A stretch of DNA of 64,000 nt, taken from Alphaproteobacteria bacterium (lineage in GTDB: Bacteria > Pseudomonadota > Alphaproteobacteria > RF32 > CAG-239). Where the stretch lies: contig SUUY01000001.1 in the NCBI GenBank assembly GCA_015062285.1, positions 94,622-158,621 on the forward strand, written 5' to 3'. Made by a program: the position numbers and the translations under genes. The notes under the pieces are model-generated. The model was given only the letters and a program-made list of their open reading frames with translations, was not told the DNA's origin and did no database searches. This document shows positions 3,537 to 45,827 of the stretch, one piece after another (the first letter of the stretch is position 1; every line of letters starts with the position of its first letter).

Positions 3537-3628
3537 GGATGAGTGGCAGAGAGGCTGAATGCGCGCGACTCGAAATCGTGAATACGGGGTAACTCGTATC
3601 GGGGGTTCAAATCCCTCCTCATCCGCCA
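3537..3628 (+). tRNA. tRNA-Ser (anticodon CGA), long variable arm, encoded CCA
   Basis: Acceptor stem GGATGAG/CTCATCC, anticodon loop CTCGAAA (CGA), extended variable arm, T-arm GGGGGTTCAAATCCCTC, discriminator G then CCA; followed directly by a hairpin terminator. Confidence 0.85.
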
Positions 3629-3632
3629 TTAA

Positions 3633-3664
3633 AGAAAAAGCCTGTCCTTGTGGCAGGCTTTTTC
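3633..3664 (+). terminator. rho-independent terminator downstream of tRNA-Ser
   Basis: AAAAAGCCTGTCC ttgt GGCAGGCTTTTTCTTT hairpin with T-run. Confidence 0.6.
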
Positions 3665-3792
3665 TTTAATTTGAGGTGAGATGATTTGAATCCCCGATAA
3701 GAAGGGGGTTCACTACAAGACACAGGCATACGGGAGTATGCCGGTAGCCTTTAAGGCTAGTGTCGCAGAGGCAACTTAAGAGAAGCGAAAAG

Positions 3793-3860
3793 TAAATCCC
3801 TCCTCATCCGCCATTAAAGAAAAAGCCTGTCCTTGTGGCAGGCTTTTTCTTTAATCTGAG
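3793..3860. repeat. second copy of a ~68-bp direct repeat (first copy 3609..3676) comprising the 3' 20 nt of tRNA-Ser plus the terminator hairpin
   Basis: aaatccctcctcatccgccattaaagaaaaagcctgtccttgtggcaggctttttctttaat occurs twice with one mismatch in the trailing bases (ttgagg vs ctgagg), separated by ~117 bp of unique sequence; the second hairpin also terminates the minus-strand kef gene. Confidence 0.8.
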
Positions 3861-5803
3861 GATGCGGTTGCTTCAGTTTCTTTACCATCTGTTGATGTAG
3901 TTTGTTCTTTGTTTTCTTCTTTGTTGCGTCCGGCTAAATTAGTTAAAAACTGTTTTTCTATTTTCATATATTGATTAAACAGCCAACGTGACTGAAATAG
4001 AACAAAAACGGATATAGCAACCATAAAAATAGTAACGTTGTTGTTTTCTGTTAAAAATTGGTGGATAGCAATTACGATGAAAAACATCACAACCAATAGT
4101 CTAAAACTGGTTAGCAATATTAGAGGAAAGCGATTTAGTTTTTTTGCAGTCCATAATTTGAAATAAAGAGCCGCAATTTTTTGATTAGATACAAAAAAGT
4201 TGCGAGCATGTTCAATTTCACCGGTCATATGGCAAAAATCAAATTTTTCTTCTAATTTTTTGATGGCAGAAGGGTGGTTTTCATCGGTTGGCTTTTTGCG
4301 GCTTAATTTACAAGCGATAGCTGCTAACTTTTCTTTGAAATATACGGGTAGAACAGATTCCCAACCTATTAGGGCTTTTAGGAAAGGTGCCATAACAATG
4401 AGGGTTATAGAGGTGACTACTATTCTGGCGGGAATATTGGGTAAATATTCGTGAATGAATGGTTTTAAGAAATAATTAGATGCTCCCAAAATAGCAGACA
4501 ATATCATGGAAAATAAGACCATGCGAATGGTATAATTTCTAAACAGAAGTTTCCATCTTTTTTCTTCCATTTTAGTTTCATCAGCAAGAGATGTATTACG
4601 TTCAATATATTTGTTCAGATTTGAGGGAATTATTTTAACAATGCGTTTGTAGAACGGATCTGAGGCTTTGATCATCATAGGTGTTAAAAATGTTGTTATT
4701 ACCGAAACAGCAACAATTATTGGATAAATTTTTTCGCTTAAAACTCCTAAACTTAAACCTAAACTAGCAATAATAAATGCAAATTCGCCAACTTGAGCAA
4801 GAGAAAAACCTCCTTGAATTGATGTTTTTAGATTCTGTCCGGAATATAAAAAGCCAAAGCAAGAAAAACTAACCTTACCTATAATAACAATGAGTGTTAT
4901 AACAAATATCGGTCCGGCATAAGTAATAAACATCGCCGGATTAACCATCATGCCAACGGATACAAAAAATACTGCGCCGAAGAAATCTTTGATTGGTTTT
5001 AAGACGCTTTCTATACGATTGATAATGTCAGTGTCGGCTAATATTGAGCCCATAATAAATGCTCCGAGGGCTGATGAAAACCCTGTATAAGTGGCAAGCA
5101 ATACCATGCTGAAACACAAACCAATAATAGTTAAGAGTAAAAGTTCATCATTTAATAGCGGGGTTACTTTTTTTAGCAAAGTCGGAACCAAATATATTCC
5201 AGAGATAAAACATAGCACGAGGAAAAATACTAATTTTAGAGTGCTGACAATTAATTCTTCGCTATTGATATTGTTGCCTAAAGCAATAGTCGGAAGTAAT
5301 ACCAAAAGTAAAATGCCAACAATGTCTTCAACTACAAGCACCCCAAAAACCAGGTCGGTGAATTTTTGCTTTTTTACGTTTAGATCGTCAAAAGCTTTAA
5401 TTATAATGGTTGTAGAAGACATAGAAATCATGCTGCCCAAAAAGAAGCTGTCTATTACCGGCCAATCTAACAAAAGTCCGACGTTGTAGCCTAAAAAAAG
5501 CATAAATAAGATATTGGCCATGGCTGTAATCATTGCAGATTTGCCAACGTTTATCATTTTACTGAAGCTAAATTCGAGGCCGAGGCTAAAAAGCAAAAAG
5601 ATAACACCAATGTCTGCCCAAAGAGAAATATCTTCTTTATCGGTGATAGTAGGTAAAAAATTGAAGTGAGGGCCAACTAAAATGCCGGCCAAAAGGTATG
5701 CCAAAACGGTTGGTTGTTTAAGCTTTTTAAAGATAAGCGTAAAAATGGTGGCATAAATAGTAATCAGTGTTAAATCTATGATTAAGGCATGTATAGAATG
5801 CAT
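3851..5803 (-). CDS. CPA2-family monovalent cation:proton antiporter (Kef/NhaP-like) with long charged C-terminal extension
   Basis: 650 aa, ~12 TM helices, N-terminal AYLLAGILVGPH motif typical of Kef-type Na+/K+:H+ antiporters. Confidence 0.75.
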   Translation of the reverse strand: MHSIHALIIDLTLITIYATIFTLIFKKLKQPTVLAYLLAGILVGPHFNFLPTITDKEDISLWADIGVIFLLFSLGLEFSFSKMINVGKSAMITAMANILFMLFLGYNVGLLLDWPVIDSFFLGSMISMSSTTIIIKAFDDLNVKKQKFTDLVFGVLVVEDIVGILLLVLLPTIALGNNINSEELIVSTLKLVFFLVLCFISGIYLVPTLLKKVTPLLNDELLLLTIIGLCFSMVLLATYTGFSSALGAFIMGSILADTDIINRIESVLKPIKDFFGAVFFVSVGMMVNPAMFITYAGPIFVITLIVIIGKVSFSCFGFLYSGQNLKTSIQGGFSLAQVGEFAFIIASLGLSLGVLSEKIYPIIVAVSVITTFLTPMMIKASDPFYKRIVKIIPSNLNKYIERNTSLADETKMEEKRWKLLFRNYTIRMVLFSMILSAILGASNYFLKPFIHEYLPNIPARIVVTSITLIVMAPFLKALIGWESVLPVYFKEKLAAIACKLSRKKPTDENHPSAIKKLEEKFDFCHMTGEIEHARNFFVSNQKIAALYFKLWTAKKLNRFPLILLTSFRLLVVMFFIVIAIHQFLTENNNVTIFMVAISVFVLFQSRWLFNQYMKIEKQFLTNLAGRNKEENKEQTTSTDGKETEATASSD

Positions 5804-7717: not shown

Positions 7718-9076
7718 TTAAGATTGTTCAAGCGTTTTGACTATTTCTTCTGTTACTTTTTTGGCATCGCCATACAACATTATGGTATTATCAGCAAAAA
7801 ACAGAGGATTTTCTACGCCGGAATAACCACTTGCAAGACTTCTTTTTACAAAAAATACGGTCTTAGCTTTTTCTACATCCAGAATTGGCATTCCGTAGAT
7901 GGGTGAGGAAGGATCGGTTCGTGCTAGCGGGTTGGTGATATCGTTAGCACCGATAACATAAGCTACGTCAGCTGTAGCAAATTCTCGGTTAATGTCTTCT
8001 AATTCAAAAACTTCATCATAGGGCACATTTGCTTCGGCCAACAAAACATTCATATGTCCGGGCATTCTTCCGGCAACAGGATGAATCGCATATTTAACTT
8101 CTACTCCATAACGATTGTGCAAATCATCGGCCATTTCTTTTAATACATGTTGAGCTTGAGCCACAGCCATACCATATCCGGGAACAATGATAACTTTGTT
8201 GGCATTTTCCATAATAAAAGCGGCATCTTCGGGGCTTCCGGATTTGGCGGTTTTGTCTGAAGAGTTAACTTGTGAAGTGTTTGTTTGTGTTCCAAAACCT
8301 CCAAGCATCACGCTAATAAGTGAGCGATTCATAGACTTGACCATAATATATGATAAAATTGCTCCGCTTGCACCAACAATCGCACCGACAATGATTAGAA
8401 CTACATTGTTAAGAGAGAAACCAATTCCGACAGCTGCCCAACCGGAATAAGCATTTAGAATCGATATGACTACAGGCATATCTGCACCGCCGATTGGTAA
8501 AACAAGCAAAATTCCTAAAAGTGTGGTAATAGCAGCAATATAATAAAAAATCAGAGGATTGTGGTTGATTATATAATAACCACATAGTGTTATGGTTGCT
8601 AAAGCAAATATCAGGTTTATAGCTTGTTGTCCCTTGAAAACAATTGCTTTGGCTTGAATAAGACCTTGCAGTTTGGCATATGCAATTATAGAGCCGGAAA
8701 AAGCAAGTCCTCCAATTACCAAGCCAATCAGATTGTTAAAAAATGAAGATGAGCCAGAAATTACTTCGACTAATGAAATTAAAACGGCAGACAAACCTCC
8801 TAATCCGTTAAAAATAGCAACCATTTGCGGAAGAGAAGTCATTTTTACTTTAAGGGCAAAGTAAATTCCGACAATGGCACCTAGGAAAATGGCTATTAAT
8901 GCATTGGACCAATTATAGTTGGGGTTTGATATAATTGTGGCTCCAATGGCGATAATAATTCCTAAAATGCCTAATGAGTTGCCTTTGCGAGCCGTTTGTG
9001 GAGAAGATAATCCTCTGATGCTGAAAATAAGTAGTATGGCGGAAATTAAATATGAATAAGATAGAAATACAGGCAT
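7718..9076 (-). CDS. pntB: NAD(P) transhydrogenase subunit beta
   Basis: 452 aa, multi-TM N-terminus and C-terminal NADP(H)-binding domain (VIIVPGYGMAVAQAQH...GANDITNP). Confidence 0.9.
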   Translation of the reverse strand: MPVFLSYSYLISAILLIFSIRGLSSPQTARKGNSLGILGIIIAIGATIISNPNYNWSNALIAIFLGAIVGIYFALKVKMTSLPQMVAIFNGLGGLSAVLISLVEVISGSSSFFNNLIGLVIGGLAFSGSIIAYAKLQGLIQAKAIVFKGQQAINLIFALATITLCGYYIINHNPLIFYYIAAITTLLGILLVLPIGGADMPVVISILNAYSGWAAVGIGFSLNNVVLIIVGAIVGASGAILSYIMVKSMNRSLISVMLGGFGTQTNTSQVNSSDKTAKSGSPEDAAFIMENANKVIIVPGYGMAVAQAQHVLKEMADDLHNRYGVEVKYAIHPVAGRMPGHMNVLLAEANVPYDEVFELEDINREFATADVAYVIGANDITNPLARTDPSSPIYGMPILDVEKAKTVFFVKRSLASGYSGVENPLFFADNTIMLYGDAKKVTEEIVKTLEQS

Positions 9077-12225: not shown

Positions 12226-13525
12226 TTTTAGTCCTAGAGAAATCGTTTCAGAACTGGATAAATATATTATCGGACAGGCTGATGCCAAAAAAGCAGTAGC
12301 TGTTGCATTACGTAACAGATGGAGAAGAATGCAGTTGCCAGAAAAATTACGAGAAGAAATTGTGCCTAAAAATATTTTGATGATTGGTCCTACCGGTGTG
12401 GGTAAAACAGAAATTTCTCGCCGACTGGCAAAATTGGCAAAAGCTCCTTTTGTAAAGGTAGAAGCAACCAAATTTACTGAAATAGGTTATGTGGGAAGAG
12501 ATGTTGAAAGTATTATCAGAGATTTGGTGGAAATATCTTTGCATAATACCAGAAAAAATATGAGAAAAAAGGTTTGTGCCAAAGCGGAAGAAGGAGCAGA
12601 AGAAAGATTGCTTGGAGCTTTGGTCGGAAATAATGCCGGAGACGAAACAAAACAAAAATTCAGGCAAATGTTAAGGGAGAATAAACTTGACGACAGAGAA
12701 ATAGATATTTCCTTGTTAGATAATAGTAATTCTTCGATGCCGACAATAGATATTCCGGGTATGCCCGGTGCTTCTATGGGCATGATCAGTTTGGGTGATT
12801 TGCTCGGCGGCGGTTCGCAAAAATATAAAACAAGAAAATTAAAAGTTGCAGATGCTAAAAAGATATTGATTGACGAGGAATCGGATAAGCTTTTGGACAA
12901 TGAAACTATTACAGCAGAAGCCATAAAGGCAGTAGAAAACGATGGAATAGTATTTATTGATGAGATAGATAAAATTACCGGAAAATCAGAGGGCGGTAGA
13001 GCAGATGTTTCTCGTGAAGGAGTGCAAAGAGATTTGTTGCCGCTGATTGAAGGAACAACAGTTTCAACTAAATATGGAATGGTGAAAACAGATCATATTT
13101 TGTTTATATGTTCAGGTGCTTTTCATTTGGCGAAACCATCTGATTTGTTGCCGGAGTTGCAAGGCCGTTTGCCTATCAGAGTGGAGTTGCAGGCTCTAAA
13201 TCGAGGCGATTTTGTAAGAATTTTGACAGAGCCGGAAGCAAACCTTATAGAACAGTATGTGGCATTGCTTGGAACCGAAGGTTTTAATCTGCGTTTTGAG
13301 CCGGAAGCTATAGAAAAAATAGCAGATGTTGCTGTGGAAATTAATGAAAATGTTGAAAATATCGGAGCAAGGCGTTTGCATACGGTATTGGAAATTTTGC
13401 TGGAGGATATAAGCTTTAAGGCTACGGATTGCAGTGGGCAAGAAGAAGTTATAACTGCTCAAATGGTAGAAGAAAAACTCGGCAAATATACCAAAGCAAG
13501 TGATCTTTCGAAGTTTATTCTATAA
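12212..13525 (+). CDS. hslU: ATP-dependent protease ATPase subunit HslU
   Basis: AAA+ Walker [12 protein letters not shown]-domain insertion, C-terminal sensor region; overlaps hslV by 14 nt. Confidence 0.9.
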
Positions 13526-14610
13526 TGGCTTTTGGGATTTACATTCATTGGCCTTTTTGCCGGAGCAAGTGTCCTTATTGTGATTTTTATAGTAAGGTGC
13601 AGAAGAATGTGCCTCAAGATGCGTTGGTTAAAGAATATCTTGAAGACATAAAATATTATGCAGATAAGATTGGTAAAAGAGAGGTAACATCAATATTTTT
13701 TGGAGGTGGAACCCCGTCTTTATTGACGCCTTCAAATATTGAAAAACTCATAAATGAAGTTGCAAAAAATTGGCTGGTTGCCAATGATGTTGAGATTTCT
13801 TTAGAGGCAAATCCGAATACAAATAAGGATAATTTATTTAGAGATTTGCATAATGCCGGAATTAATCGATTGTCTTTAGGTATTCAATCTTTAAGAGATT
13901 CGGATTTGAAATTTTTGGGTAGAACTCACAGTGTAAAAGAGGCTTTGCAGTCGGTAGAAGAGGTATTGAACATTTTTGATAATCACTCTGCTGATTTGAT
14001 TTATGCTCGTCCAAATCAAAGTAAGTCAGAATGGGAAGATGAGTTAACGCAGCTTTGTAAATTTGGGTTTAAGCACTTGTCTTTATATCAGTTAACAATA
14101 GAAGAAGGTACGGTTTTTGCTAAGAAGGGAATTGAGGCAGTTGGCGAAGATGATGCTATTGAACTTTATAAAATTAGCGAAGGTGTTGTAGAAAGCTACG
14201 GGTATAAAGGGTATGAAGTATCTAATTATGCAAAAAGCGGCTTTGAATGTCGTCACAATAAGATTTATTGGCAAGGTGATGATTATGTGGGCATAGGAAA
14301 AGGTGCACACGGCAGATTGAGAATCGGAAATAAATTTTATGCAACAACACATCATCGGGTTTTTGAAGAAATAACCGGACATGAAAGAGCTGAAGAACTT
14401 GTTTTTATGGGGCTTCGTTTAAGAGAGGGAATAAACAAAAAATATTTTGAAAAATGCTGCGGTATAAAATTTGATGAGTTTATAGATAAAAAAATTTTAA
14501 GAGAACTGGAAAATCAAAATCTTTTGTATGTTACAGATCAAAGTATAAGAGCAACAGATGAAGGGATTTTATTGTTAAATCAAATAATAGAGCAATTAGT
14601 TTGTATGTAA
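13525..14610 (+). CDS. hemW: radical SAM family heme chaperone HemW (HemN-like, oxygen-independent coproporphyrinogen-III oxidase-like)
   Basis: CxxxCxxC radical-SAM motif CRSKCPYCDF near N-terminus, HemN C-terminal domain. Confidence 0.85.
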   Translation: MAFGIYIHWPFCRSKCPYCDFYSKVQKNVPQDALVKEYLEDIKYYADKIGKREVTSIFFGGGTPSLLTPSNIEKLINEVAKNWLVANDVEISLEANPNTNKDNLFRDLHNAGINRLSLGIQSLRDSDLKFLGRTHSVKEALQSVEEVLNIFDNHSADLIYARPNQSKSEWEDELTQLCKFGFKHLSLYQLTIEEGTVFAKKGIEAVGEDDAIELYKISEGVVESYGYKGYEVSNYAKSGFECRHNKIYWQGDDYVGIGKGAHGRLRIGNKFYATTHHRVFEEITGHERAEELVFMGLRLREGINKKYFEKCCGIKFDEFIDKKILRELENQNLLYVTDQSIRATDEGILLLNQIIEQLVCM

Positions 14611-43200: not shown

Positions 43201-43779
43201 ATGATGTATAATCCGATTAAAAGGAATTTTCAAGTGATAGAACAAGAGCAACATATAAAAAAAACAAAACACCTGAGAAAAATGACACAGCAACGTCTTA
43301 AAAACATTGCTCTTTATTATCTTAAACGGTTTGATTCTTCGGTAGCAAATTTGCGTTTGGTGCTGCAGAGAAGAGTAAATGATTATGCATATCATGTTCC
43401 TGATTTTGCGAAAAGTGATGCTTATGACTGGATCGAAACAATTCTGTCAGATTTTATGAATGTAGGGTATTTGAATGATTCGCGGTATGCTGAGATGAAA
43501 ATTAAATCATATATTTTAGCAGGGAAATCAGTGCGTTATATTCAAAGAAAACTTAAAGAAAAAGGAATTGATGAAAATCTTACTGATCAACTGATTACTC
43601 AGCAAAATTTTGATCCGTTTGATGCAGCTATAAAACTTGCCCGTAAAAGAAAAATAGGACCATTTAATCCCAATGAATGTCTTAGAAAAGAGCGCCGTAA
43701 TAAAGAATTGGCAATCTTGGTTCGAGCCGGTTTTGATTATGATGTGGCTGTAAGAGTTTTGGATTCTACGGATTATTAG
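43201..43779 (+). CDS. recX: recombination regulator RecX
   Basis: QRLKNIALYYLKRFDSSVANLRLVLQRR three-helix-repeat RecX pattern, 192 aa. Confidence 0.75.
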   Translation: MMYNPIKRNFQVIEQEQHIKKTKHLRKMTQQRLKNIALYYLKRFDSSVANLRLVLQRRVNDYAYHVPDFAKSDAYDWIETILSDFMNVGYLNDSRYAEMKIKSYILAGKSVRYIQRKLKEKGIDENLTDQLITQQNFDPFDAAIKLARKRKIGPFNPNECLRKERRNKELAILVRAGFDYDVAVRVLDSTDY

Positions 43780-44708
43780 TACCAAATTTTGTTTAAGTAT
43801 AGCCCACATGCCGGAGCGGTAGGGCCGGCTTTGCGACGGTCTTTTGCTTCAAGAATGGTTTTGATGTCGGAAGGTGAAATGCTCTTATCTCCTACCATTT
43901 TCAATGTTCCTACAATGTTTCTTACTTGGTGGTGTAAGAAAGATCTTGCTTCAACCTCAAACACGATTTCATCGCCTTTTTTATAAATATCTATTTTATC
44001 CAAAGTTTTGATAGGTGACTTGGCTTGACAAGCTGCGGCTCTAAAAGAGCTAAAATCGTGATTACCTAATAGGTGTTTTGCACCCTCTTGCATAGCGTTA
44101 ATATCTAGTTCTATAGGGACCCACCATACTCTGTTTTGCTCAATAATTGCCGGAGAACGGCGATTTAAGATTCGATATATATACCCTCTTTTTTGGGCAG
44201 AGAATCGAGCATTAAATTCAGAACTAACTTTTTCAACATTCAAAACAACAACAGGAGCATTTTGTTCTCTTAAATGAAAGTTTATAGCATCTCTTAGCTT
44301 CCAATCTTCTATATCCCTTTCTAAATCAAAGTGAGCTACCTGTCCCAAGGCATGGACTCCTGCGTCGGTTCGTCCGGATCCTTGTATTTCTATAAATCGA
44401 GTTTTGGCGGAAGCCTGCAGCGTTGATCCGCTGCTCGGATCCTCACGTACGTCTATGTACGCTCCGGTCCTGTGCTGCGTGTCAACATCTTCATTCTTCA
44501 CTTCAAAACTCGATTTGTGATCTTGTATGGTTTTGGCAGAAGCATGCGGCGTTGGTTCTGTTTGAGGTTTTATTTTGCTGTTTATATTATTAGGCAGCAA
44601 TTTATTAACAGCGTTTTCTAAATATTCTTGAATACTTGGGCCATCTAGTTGGCGTTGCCAACCAAGAGTATTGGTTCCGTCGTATTCGATAGTAATTTTG
44701 TATCTCAC
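43776..44708 (-). CDS. truA: tRNA pseudouridine(38-40) synthase TruA carrying a ~65-aa in-frame insertion
   Basis: MRYKITIEYDGTNTLGWQRQ and GSGRTDAGVHALGQVAHFD catalytic block; ~65 extra residues between them relative to canonical TruA. Confidence 0.85.
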   Translation of the reverse strand: MRYKITIEYDGTNTLGWQRQLDGPSIQEYLENAVNKLLPNNINSKIKPQTEPTPHASAKTIQDHKSSFEVKNEDVDTQHRTGAYIDVREDPSSGSTLQASAKTRFIEIQGSGRTDAGVHALGQVAHFDLERDIEDWKLRDAINFHLREQNAPVVVLNVEKVSSEFNARFSAQKRGYIYRILNRRSPAIIEQNRVWWVPIELDINAMQEGAKHLLGNHDFSSFRAAACQAKSPIKTLDKIDIYKKGDEIVFEVEARSFLHHQVRNIVGTLKMVGDKSISPSDIKTILEAKDRRKAGPTAPACGLYLNKIWY

Positions 44709-44780
44709 GTTTGTTCTTTCAAAAAAATAGGGGACATAAGTAACTTATGCCCCCTTATATTTATTTTGGCAAGAAAACTT

Positions 44781-45827
44781 TTATTCTGCCGCAATTTTGG
44801 CATATTGATCGTTGTCTTGAGACAAGAATCCTAGTTTTGCTTCAATTTTCCAAATAATCTTAAGAGCATTTAAGGCGTCTTCTCCGCTGATTCTGGGCGT
44901 TTCTTTGCCTTTAACACAATTTAAGAAATGGGTTAATTCTGATTGTAAGGGCTGGCTGGTTGGAATAAACAGCTGTTCGGAACAACCTTTGAGACCATAA
45001 CGCATCCAGTCGGGAATATTGTCTTGTTGCACAAAGGGCATACGACCTTGAGAACAAACATTAATACTTTGATTGATGAAATCCATGTCAATATAATTAG
45101 TGTCTGTTGTGACACTGAGAGTGCGTACTCTAGATTGAGTGATGCGACTAGATGTTATGTTGGCTGTAACTCCGTTTTCAAAACTCAATAAAGCACTAAT
45201 ATAGTCTTTTCCGCTAGGGCTGTGTTTAGTTTTTACTGCGGAAGCTTGTACATCAACAACCGGTGATTTTACAAGAGAAAGTATTACTTCTACATCATGT
45301 ATCATCAAATCCATTGCAACGTCAACGTCTGTAATACGTCCGCTGGCAGCAGACATGCGATTAGCCGAAAGAGAACAAATTTTAGAGTTATCAGCTAAGA
45401 GCTTGTGCATTTGTTCAACAGCAGGGTTGAATTGCTCGACATGACCAACCAAAAGGGTCACATTGTTTTTCTTTGCGGCATTGATAAGCTTCAAGCATTG
45501 TTCTTCTGTGGTGGCTAGGGGTTTTTCCATTAAGCAATGGATGCCTTTATTTAAGAAAAATTCGCCAACCTCGGCGTGGGTTACAGAAGTTGTAACAACG
45601 CTAACGGCATCTACCGTAGTGGCAACTTCTTCCAGCGAAGAGAAAGCTTTGATTCCAAACAAATCAGCAGCAGCTTTTGCGGCTTCCGGATATATGTCAT
45701 ATACACCGACCAAATCTACTCCTTGCAAATTTTTGTAAGTTTTGAGGTGGTTTTTACCCATCATACCGGCACCAATAACTGCGACCTTTATATTATTAGA
45801 CATGTTTTTTACCCCTAATTGGTTCAT
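44781..45827 (-). CDS. Gfo/Idh/MocA-family NAD(P)-dependent oxidoreductase
   Basis: N-terminal Rossmann IKVAVIGAGMMGKNHL and EKP motif (CLMEKPLA). Confidence 0.8.
   Translation of the reverse strand: MNQLGVKNMSNNIKVAVIGAGMMGKNHLKTYKNLQGVDLVGVYDIYPEAAKAAADLFGIKAFSSLEEVATTVDAVSVVTTSVTHAEVGEFFLNKGIHCLMEKPLATTEEQCLKLINAAKKNNVTLLVGHVEQFNPAVEQMHKLLADNSKICSLSANRMSAASGRITDVDVAMDLMIHDVEVILSLVKSPVVDVQASAVKTKHSPSGKDYISALLSFENGVTANITSSRITQSRVRTLSVTTDTNYIDMDFINQSINVCSQGRMPFVQQDNIPDWMRYGLKGCSEQLFIPTSQPLQSELTHFLNCVKGKETPRISGEDALNALKIIWKIEAKLGFLSQDNDQYAKIAAE

Follow-up and report, generated by a model that had tools for sequence, protein, structure and literature searches.

The truA gene and its insert

The subject of this analysis is truA, the gene for tRNA pseudouridine38-40 synthase, together with an insert that it carries in frame, in a 64-kb stretch of contig SUUY01000001.1 from an uncultured gut alphaproteobacterium; the whole of this stretch is called the window below. 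The insert holds a long palindrome, which will be compared mainly with RPE-1, a palindromic element of Rickettsia. The features concerned are as follows, with the basis of each in brackets; related proteins and loci are cited by our own handles, such as P0013 and L005.

43776..44708, minus strand: truA, tRNA pseudouridine38-40 synthase, host of the insertion (open reading frame (ORF) of 310 aa, GTG start)
44394..44573, ends +/-12 nt, minus strand: whole in-frame insert, about residues 46-105 (alignment with the insert-free P0013, P0014 and L005)
44394..44516, minus strand: 123-nt imperfect palindrome, RPE-1-type unit, residues K65-F105 (13-bp terminal inverted repeat, fold, covariation)
44424..44483, minus strand: conserved core of about 60 nt, GACACGCAGCACAGGACCGGAGCGTACATAGACGTACGTGAGGATCCGAGCAGCGGATCA, which encodes DTQHRTGAYIDVREDPSSGS (53/60 identical with the Rickettsia copy in L061)
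44445..44462, minus strand: apical stem-loop GCGUAC-AUAGAC-GUACGU, codons A83-R88 (invariant in 13 truA copies)
44530..44554, minus strand: R', a direct-repeat copy of the right arm of the palindrome (22/25 identical)

The ORF matches both PF01416 (E = 2e-40) and TIGR00071 (185.7 bits, above the cutoff of 142.85), and both matches span the protein from end to end. E. coli TruA (1DJ0) aligns to residues 5-38 and 108-308, with 69 residues here in the place of 5 there; over the closest insert-free orthologues, which have 249 aa, this TruA gains a net length of about 61 aa. The insert leaves the reading frame intact, and the GRTDAGVH catalytic loop is present. An earlier note, made from the letters of the DNA, had described a TruA of about 310 aa with some 65 extra residues in frame before GRTDAGVH and had placed them at 44400-44594. 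The size and position of the extra segment are borne out, while the coordinates are slightly shifted, to about 44394-44573, once the insert is delimited against the 249-aa orthologues.

Within the insert the order of parts is a linker, the partial right-arm copy R', a spacer of four codons and the complete palindrome. The high G+C content that had been noticed is confirmed: it reaches 54-55% in 100-nt windows at 44350-44499, and the 123-nt palindrome itself has 50.4%, compared with 36.8% over the whole window, so that it ranks among the richest 0.9% of 123-nt windows. The short inverted repeats listed in the earlier note are real, and all of them turn out to be parts of one long imperfect palindrome, 44394-44516, which ends in perfect 13-bp arms (AAATCGAGTTTTG/CAAAACTCGATTT). 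The length of this palindrome is divisible by 3, and the frame in use is open according to the frame analysis. As RNA it folds with a minimum free energy of -54.0 kcal/mol (z = -7.4), and none of 200 shuffled sequences is as stable; the fold as DNA has z = -4.8. Next to the apical stem-loop lie a GGA/GA internal loop and a CC/GG helix; the DNA of the stem-loop is the same in 13/13 truA copies, third codon positions included. The direct repeat reported to give the peptide repeat ASAKT is real as well, with 22/25 nucleotides identical between 44401-44425 and 44530-44554, for which the chance expectation is none. The peptide of R' is PTPHASAKT, that of the right arm STLQASAKT, and R' stands upstream of the left arm, as what is left of a second tandem unit or as the seed of one. 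On direct reading of the sequence no terminator-like U run follows the hairpin. An Rfam scan of 44200-44800 and eight related loci at relaxed thresholds gives no family for the element, only chance-level matches and an unrelated WsnRNA46-like palindrome in a Rickettsia locus.

The AlphaFold2 model, made with an alignment of 38 sequences, folds TruA confidently and gives residues 43-103 a predicted local distance difference test score of 24-32. There the insert forms a loop of low confidence, placed after helix 26-35/40-43 and before the next strand. The modelling thus shows the insert as a predicted disordered surface loop that leads from helix alpha-1 to the strand before the catalytic GRTDAGVH loop, and shows that a loop of about 60 aa would leave the pseudouridine synthase fold intact. 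The peptide may well be neutral for TruA function. For annotation, the TruA proteins of 297-348 aa in the related gut metagenome-assembled genomes (MAGs) are neither mis-calls nor carriers of a new domain.

Homology to RPE-1 of Rickettsia

RPE-1 was reportedly described by Ogata et al. in 2000 and 2002, and its peptide is represented in NCBIfam by TIGR01045, 'palindromic element RPE1 domain'. Palindromes that code for protein have, to our knowledge, counted as a curiosity of Rickettsia since 2000, and we know of no account of how they move or why their hairpin is kept.

The earlier note had likened the insert to RPE-like selfish DNA inserted in frame. The results support this and go further, to RPE-1 itself. 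A profile of the aligned insert peptides of eleven TruA orthologues finds the 'palindromic element RPE1 domain-containing protein' entries of Rickettsia endosymbionts and Ca. Tisiphia, with E down to 2e-9, and in hhalign it matches twelve Rickettsia RPE-1 peptides with 98.8% probability and E = 4e-17. TIGR01045 matches residues 76-96 (26.2 bits for the protein as a whole, 29.6 bits for the excised segment) just under its curated cutoff of 30 bits; the cutoff is passed by inserts in gyrA (36.6), dapD (47.0) and a yfiH-like gene (36.5) of Holosporales and in hemW of Ca. Scatocola (30.1). At the DNA level, identity with the RPE-1 copy in the Rickettsia endosymbiont of Pyrocoelia (L061) is 76% over 97 nt, including the 53/60 in the centre. 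Because profile search, TIGR01045, hhalign and DNA identity agree, the insert is more than RPE-like: by these sequence comparisons it is homologous to RPE-1. It is a divergent RPE-1 member, of which the host lineage and the host gene are new.

The likeness to RPE-1 of Rickettsia extends to the general form, in that both are hairpin palindromes of about 120-150 bp, lie in frame in housekeeping genes and are translated as a tolerated surface peptide, with the peptide core TE(H/R)RTAAYIDVRED-STG and the DNA core common to both. There is also a parallel in function of the host gene, since truB of R. conorii, likewise a tRNA pseudouridine synthase gene, is interrupted by RPE-1 (PMC3733652). Unlike in Rickettsia, the host of the window element belongs neither to that genus nor to Rickettsiales, and the outer arms are unrelated (ASAKTRF/KSSFEV here, LSKLAYREEFEG/STYKLPLEVEF there). 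Copies per genome as seen here are few (truA, hemW and rnpA in relatives, one in the window), while 44 RPE copies are counted in genes of R. conorii, as summarised in PMC10969869. The 1.3-unit tandem layout with variable dose is a further difference. The 'unique feature in Rickettsia' of the literature does not hold, given copies in gut MAGs and cutoff-passing copies in a Holosporales MAG. In the literature searched, the coverage of which is incomplete, no RPE-1 is reported outside Rickettsiaceae, and no link is drawn to RSA or ERIC, two enterobacterial repeats discussed below.

Gain, dose change and loss at one site

The top 120 homologues of TruA range from 246 to 348 aa, and the alignment puts all of this variation at the insert site. 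Several classes of orthologues are found: those with no insert, those with the right arm only (P0031, P0119), those with truncated units (P0017, P0058), the common class with 1.3 units (R', linker, left arm, apex and right arm; 297-312 aa) and tandem arrays of 2.3 units (P0053, P0056, L111). The dose of the element in orthologues from related gut MAGs is accordingly 0, 0.3, 1.3 or 2.3 copies, always at one site. The layout R'-L-apex-R, where L and R are the two arms, is shared by all insert-bearing truA orthologues and by hemW of L077. The gene order, with a GFO/IDH oxidoreductase, truA, recX and hsp33, is the same with and without the insert. The genomes with the truA insert are gut MAGs, namely Ca. 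Scatocola from chicken, which is placed in Rhodospirillales in NCBI taxonomy, mouse-gut genomes, and Hadza and Nepali human-gut bins.

In a neighbour-joining tree of the TruA core, insert-bearing proteins occur in nearly all subclades, and empty or truncated ones are nested among them. The nearest relatives of the window TruA (P0013, P0014, P0021 and P0045) are empty, and P0017, P0031 and P0116 are sisters of full copies. The subtypes of the arms follow the same tree, with subtype A (KSGFGEEN...) in one clade and subtype B (NDFSEAY...) in another. These patterns suggest one old insertion, vertical descent, changes of dose and repeated deletions as the simplest reading. The truA orthologues form a natural series in which one site shows gain, change of dose and clean loss. 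The earlier note had held that a segment of equivalent length in orthologous TruA proteins of unrelated alphaproteobacteria would speak against a selfish insert. Such a segment does exist in relatives, yet it is the same element at the same site, and the closest core orthologues are without it.

Copies in other genes

An exhaustive hidden Markov model (HMM) search of 1.84 billion representative proteins gives 106 matches, which include HemW-type radical-SAM proteins, RNase H, RnpA, a DapF-like protein, a 5'-3' exonuclease, a phage tape-measure protein and typical Rickettsia proteins. The DNA loci show in-frame copies in hemW (L037, L077, L106) and rnpA (L089) of relatives of the window organism, in gyrA, dapD and the yfiH-like gene of the Holosporales MAG, and in putA of a MAG of Rickettsiales. 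Those copies of the alphaproteobacterial groups that lie within a long ORF all share one frame, AYxxVRE. Uncultured gut alphaproteobacteria thus harbour the family in genes that are essential (truA, hemW, rnpA), and its host range is wider than Rickettsia. The N-terminus of HemW in related genomes contains one to three copies (449 aa in L077, 565 aa in L106, and also L037). The corresponding gene of the window is as follows.

13525..14610, plus strand: hemW, 361 aa, with an empty site (the ORF begins without N-terminal extension, directly after hslU)

Two or three genes are occupied in the relatives, as seen from L025 and L106, which share a contig, and from L089. The copies in truA and hemW of Ca. 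Scatocola faecipullorum, which lie on one contig, are 89.8% identical over 205 nt and nearly identical over the palindrome, while identity is 77.8% between truA copies from two species of Scatocola. Since the truA/hemW pair is closer than the congeneric truA pair, copies within one genome exchange sequence, by transposition or conversion; such exchange between different genes is shown in this one relative.

Some observations on the copies in relatives may be added here. In P0131, a predicted protein of 115 aa, the first 17 residues of a DUF559-like ORF, as found upstream of hemW, are followed by the element and the catalytic part of TruA (compare L106 and L025); it is either an assembly chimera across two repeat copies or a real recombination between hemW and truA copies. 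A second GC-rich segment of about 50 aa, PPLNVKGRLGGVYTSPELCENED, stands just upstream of the element in some truA genes (L008 10001-11038, L108) and upstream of the hemW copy (L106). It is made of short hairpins such as CCTCCCCTTAA/TTAAGGGGAGG and may represent a further palindromic module of small size, one that accompanies the element. Tandem element copies in rnpA of a mouse-gut MAG (L089 1531-2070) and in an ORF of L110 run into stretches of N; the repeat disrupts assembly from short reads, so that MAGs probably show fewer copies than there are.

Conservation of the hairpin

Thirteen distinct truA copies can be aligned without gaps over 132 nt. RNAalifold predicts from this alignment a hairpin with 34 pairs, of which 15 have compensatory double changes. 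The proportion of cells in standard pairs is 97.1%, against 84.8% after shuffling, where 0/500 shuffles reach the observed value, and 34-43% when the pairing partner is slid. The covariation does not come down to one difference between subtypes A and B, because several pairs have three pair types. The codons point in the same direction. In the truA core, identity at third positions is 47%, and the codon is identical for 51% of identical residues; the figures are 75% and 90% in the element, and 86% and 97% in the apex. From covariation and codon conservation together it follows that a constraint, or a homogenising process, acts on the nucleotides. It is the hairpin that is conserved rather than the peptide, and the constraint sits mostly on the tip of the hairpin.

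Origin of the insert and alternative explanations

Bringing these results together, we consider it highly probable that the insert belongs to the RPE-1 family as a non-autonomous palindromic repeat, placed in frame in truA, ancestral, conserved as a hairpin and variable in dose. The element would have entered truA in the ancestor of a clade of gut-associated alphaproteobacterial MAGs, in which relatives bear the name Ca. Scatocola, and would have been inherited vertically since. Slippage, or unequal recombination between R' and R, may then have shifted the number of 123-nt units among 0.3, 1.3 and 2.3, and deletion mediated by the hairpin or the repeats may have removed the element fully in some lineages. 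The arms co-vary so that they remain complementary, and the apex is frozen even at synonymous positions. Because stem and internal loop are invariant, the loop is free and the arms need only pair, a protein or an RNA-processing activity that recognises the hairpin tip appears probable.

Several points weigh against this account. The core tree is a crude neighbour-joining tree of one protein. The high synonymous conservation could mean that the copies are younger than the gene, by recurrent insertion or conversion, and not that they are under selection. The flanks of the palindrome, CAC and ATA, are not duplicated, so there is no target-site duplication, and the window insert stays below the curated cutoff of TIGR01045. 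When the ORFs within 2.5 kb of about 120 copies are clustered, generic families and a ribosomal-protein operon come out, with no transposase candidate; a cluster of tyrosine transposases (RAYT-like) is likewise lacking near those copies. In the 64-kb window there is no second copy by blastn with word size 7, by pattern searches or by six-frame HMM search, and the hemW site is empty in the window though occupied in relatives. Of the earlier note's expectation of palindromic structure and further copies, the first part is therefore confirmed and the second finds no support within the window, where the element may be the lone survivor in its genome.

Among the alternatives, the first is that truA is a hotspot into which the element has been inserted independently and repeatedly, or that gene conversion has overwritten it again and again, with no single ancient insertion. 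We regard this as unlikely, although part of the data would fit it well: subtypes A and B have arms that differ at most positions, divergence at synonymous sites is far lower in the element than in the gene, within one genome the copies in truA and hemW are closer to each other than truA copies of sister species are, and several lineages have an occupied hemW N-terminus as well. Against it, position, frame, orientation and R'-L-apex-R layout are identical in all orthologues, the two subtypes track the TruA core tree, and the remnants P0017, P0031, P0116 and P0119 are sister to full copies, as decay in place predicts.

No more probable, in our judgement, is that the host has co-opted the hairpin as a cis-acting RNA or DNA signal in truA, for mRNA stability or processing or as a factor-binding site. 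The invariance of the apex across phyla while loop and arms vary, the compensatory changes that maintain pairing and the nucleotide-level conservation within a coding region would all be expected of such a signal, and intragenic ERIC elements and QMITE1 can carry ORFs (PMC10969869). Yet the element is completely lost in several close lineages in which truA is otherwise unchanged, no Rfam family matches it and no terminator-like U run follows it, and an apex that serves the element's own propagation predicts the same conservation.

A lineage-specific protein insertion, that is, a linker or interaction loop under amino-acid selection with an incidental palindrome, is very improbable. The motif (S/D)TER(R/K)xAAYxxVRE(D/E)xSTG is common to all orthologues, and the frame has been open over a long evolutionary time, as this explanation requires. 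The codons of identical residues, however, are 90-97% identical in the element and 51% in the core; the region is predicted to be disordered; the same DNA occurs in Burkholderiales, Eubacteriales and E. coli between genes, with stops in that frame; and repeated losses and dose changes are tolerated. A functional protein domain was rejected on the codon-level conservation, the predicted disorder and the intergenic homologues. Finally, an artefact of assembly or binning, such as a chimeric contig, can practically be dismissed: repeats of this family do break assemblies (the N runs in tandem copies of L089 and L110) and P0131 looks chimeric, but the identical 310-aa protein is present on 10 contigs from independent runs and an NCBI MAG, and orthologous inserts come from dozens of separate assemblies.

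Comparison with other mobile repeats

As an RPE-1-type repeat the element may be compared with two other classes of small repeats. It resembles MITEs (miniature transposable elements with inverted repeats) in being small, non-coding alone, bounded by terminal inverted repeats and dispersed in related genomes. In MITEs, however, the termini, to which transposase binds, are conserved and the centre varies, whereas here the centre is invariant and the termini vary and yet stay complementary. The 13-bp terminal repeats are the most variable part across copies, the target site is not duplicated, and the 25-nt direct repeat is internal. No parent insertion sequence turned up among the ORFs clustered around about 120 copies. 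With the repetitive extragenic palindromic (REP) and CGTC-tagged repeats, including RPE-4 and RPE-6 (Di Nocera et al. 2013, PMC3733652), it shares the form of short palindromes that sometimes lie within ORFs and make up cross-phylum families; even truA is known as a host gene, being interrupted by a REP in S. maltophilia (PMC3733652). REPs differ in that they measure 20-40 bp, have a terminal GTAG or CGTC tag and are often RAYT-linked, while the present element has 123 nt, a conserved apex and no terminal tag. The 23S sarcin-ricin loop, domain V of group II introns, attC sites and dif-type 11-6-11 sites were also considered for a likeness to the element, and all were rejected for want of support.

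A possible wider family of hairpin repeats

The apex was used for a scan with the pattern GCGTAC-N6-GTACGTGARGA-N22-CAR over one genome per GTDB species (2 x 596 Gb), in which about 4 chance matches are expected. At least 119 stretches matched. Those listed come from Rickettsia and other Rickettsiales, Bdellovibrionales, Rokubacteria and Methylomirabilota, termite-gut Eubacteriales and Chlorobi, among others. Also among the matches listed, a Holosporales MAG and a peat Betaproteobacterium have at least 13 copies each, one of the Burkholderiales MAGs has at least 13 loci, and Nitrospirota are represented by several MAGs, one of them with at least 6 loci. The arms are lineage-specific, and nearly all copies listed fold as hairpins of 120-180 nt. 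Multi-copy hairpin repeats with the apex CCG-GAGCGTAC-loop-GTACGTGAGGA are thus present in Holosporales, in Beta- and Gammaproteobacteria, in Bdellovibrionales and Nitrospirota, and in other groups. The motif CACGGAGCGCAGAACCG-AGCGTAC...GTACGTGAGGAT-CGAGCACCG is common to the alphaproteobacterial, betaproteobacterial and Bdellovibrionales families, with a conservation that exceeds the bases fixed by the pattern.

The window element was then compared with the consensus of each group over 70 columns outside the search pattern, for which the null is 16-17 +/- 3.6. It agrees in 43/70 columns with Rickettsia, 41/70 with Holosporales and 39/70 with Bdello/Rhodospirillaceae, and in each of these three cases the true site is the only one among 127,640 positions to reach the value. 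For Nitrospirota, the peat Betaproteobacterium and Rokubacteria the ungapped agreement is 26-27/70 (p ~0.001-0.004). The values for Burkholderiales (21/70) and Eubacteriales (24/70) are not significant, and there the evidence is the apex and the hairpin. In these last two groups no copy lies within a long ORF, and for this reason survival in frame looks like a trait of AT-rich, host-associated alphaproteobacteria; a stop-free frame of at least 150 aa is unusable as a test of coding in the GC-rich phyla, where long open frames arise by chance.

As a separate observation, hairpin copies are located in intergenic spacers of nusG-rplK-rplA-rplJ in a betaproteobacterium (L056), a member of Nitrospiria (L098) and a Pseudomonadota MAG (L080), and L056 has two copies in these spacers, in opposite orientation. 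Chance may account for this location, or else a preference for operons that are highly transcribed.

A blastn search of plasmid and phage collections with the 123-nt element returned only two mis-filed chromosomal records. One is from Aeromonas caviae, a chromosome mislabelled as plasmid (87% over 53 nt, E = 1e-6), and the other is a Salmonella contig in which the match adjoins ryhB (L133 121-164, E = 2e-4). The core of the Salmonella sequence is present in 5426/5426 complete E. coli genomes, in a median of about 5 places (5-8 per genome). The E. coli copies are intergenic, for example in the nuoL-nuoM spacer (L135 201-261, E. coli C). A covariance model, R1, built from non-enterobacterial copies only, has the nuoL-nuoM site as its sole match in 48 kb of E. 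coli (31.2 bits, E = 1.8e-5), and the E. coli copy folds as a hairpin of about 118 nt, in which the apex is built in the same way. The repeat of E. coli and Salmonella is like the window element in its apex, AACCGGAGCGTAC-loop-GTACGTGAGGATTGCGAGCAC, with the helix, the GGA/GA internal loop and the 6-bp stem; it is unlike it in being intergenic, in a loop of 4-5 nt against 6, and in its unrelated arms. It is probably the little-studied family RSA (= BEE95), a name assigned on no other grounds than size and copy number, which Table 1 of PMC5172473 gives as 150/151 bp and 6 copies in K-12.

Another enterobacterial repeat, ERIC or IRU, is a 127-bp imperfect palindrome and so of similar size, and its apex GGAGCTTAC-ATAA-GTAAGTGAC is laid out as GGAGCGTAC-N6-GTACGTGAG. 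ERIC can be intragenic and carry ORFs (PMC10969869). R1 matches it in register, as the second-best match in 49 kb, with 9.9 bits and E = 2.3, which is not significant. The relation to ERIC is thus a lead, not evidence of membership.

With confidence evenly balanced for and against, we propose that RPE-1 may be one branch of an old superfamily of hairpin repeats of 120-150 nt spread across several phyla. The hallmark of this putative superfamily could be a near-invariant apex, consisting of the CC/GG helix, the GGA/GA loop and the GCGTAC/GTACGT stem, together with a free loop and arms that need only pair. Its range could take in Rickettsiales, Holosporales and the gut Rhodospirillales-like group, all three with copies that persist in frame within genes, as well as Burkholderiales and other Betaproteobacteria, E. 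coli/Salmonella/Aeromonas, Bdellovibrionales, Nitrospirota, Rokubacteria/Methylomirabilota and termite-gut Eubacteriales, and possibly ERIC as a member. Neither the superfamily nor the E. coli link was found in the literature searched, and the proposal is drawn from sequence statistics. If it is true, the apex would be a recognition module for a widely conserved protein or mobilisation machinery, open to study in E. coli; should the link to E. coli hold, factor binding, RNA processing and mobilisation at the conserved tip could be tested in a model organism.

Other observations

In IMG/VR only three contigs (L130-L132) have the apical pattern, and a tape-measure protein (P0212) contains an in-frame copy; among real phage records no match to the apical pattern is found. 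Phages seem to host the element occasionally and do not look like its main vehicle.

In the Rickettsia locus L061 other long palindromes, at 4022-4165 and 7837-7955, resemble Rfam WsnRNA46 (Wolbachia sRNA 46) with 42-52 bits, below the gathering threshold of 65.3. They may represent a different RPE family related to the Wolbachia 'sRNA'.

In the window itself, two identical hairpins of 43 nt are located at 3628-3670 and 3813-3855, 185 nt apart, with perfect 17-bp stems (AAAAAGCCTG...CAGGCTTTTT). The pair is a local duplication of an element that resembles a bidirectional terminator.

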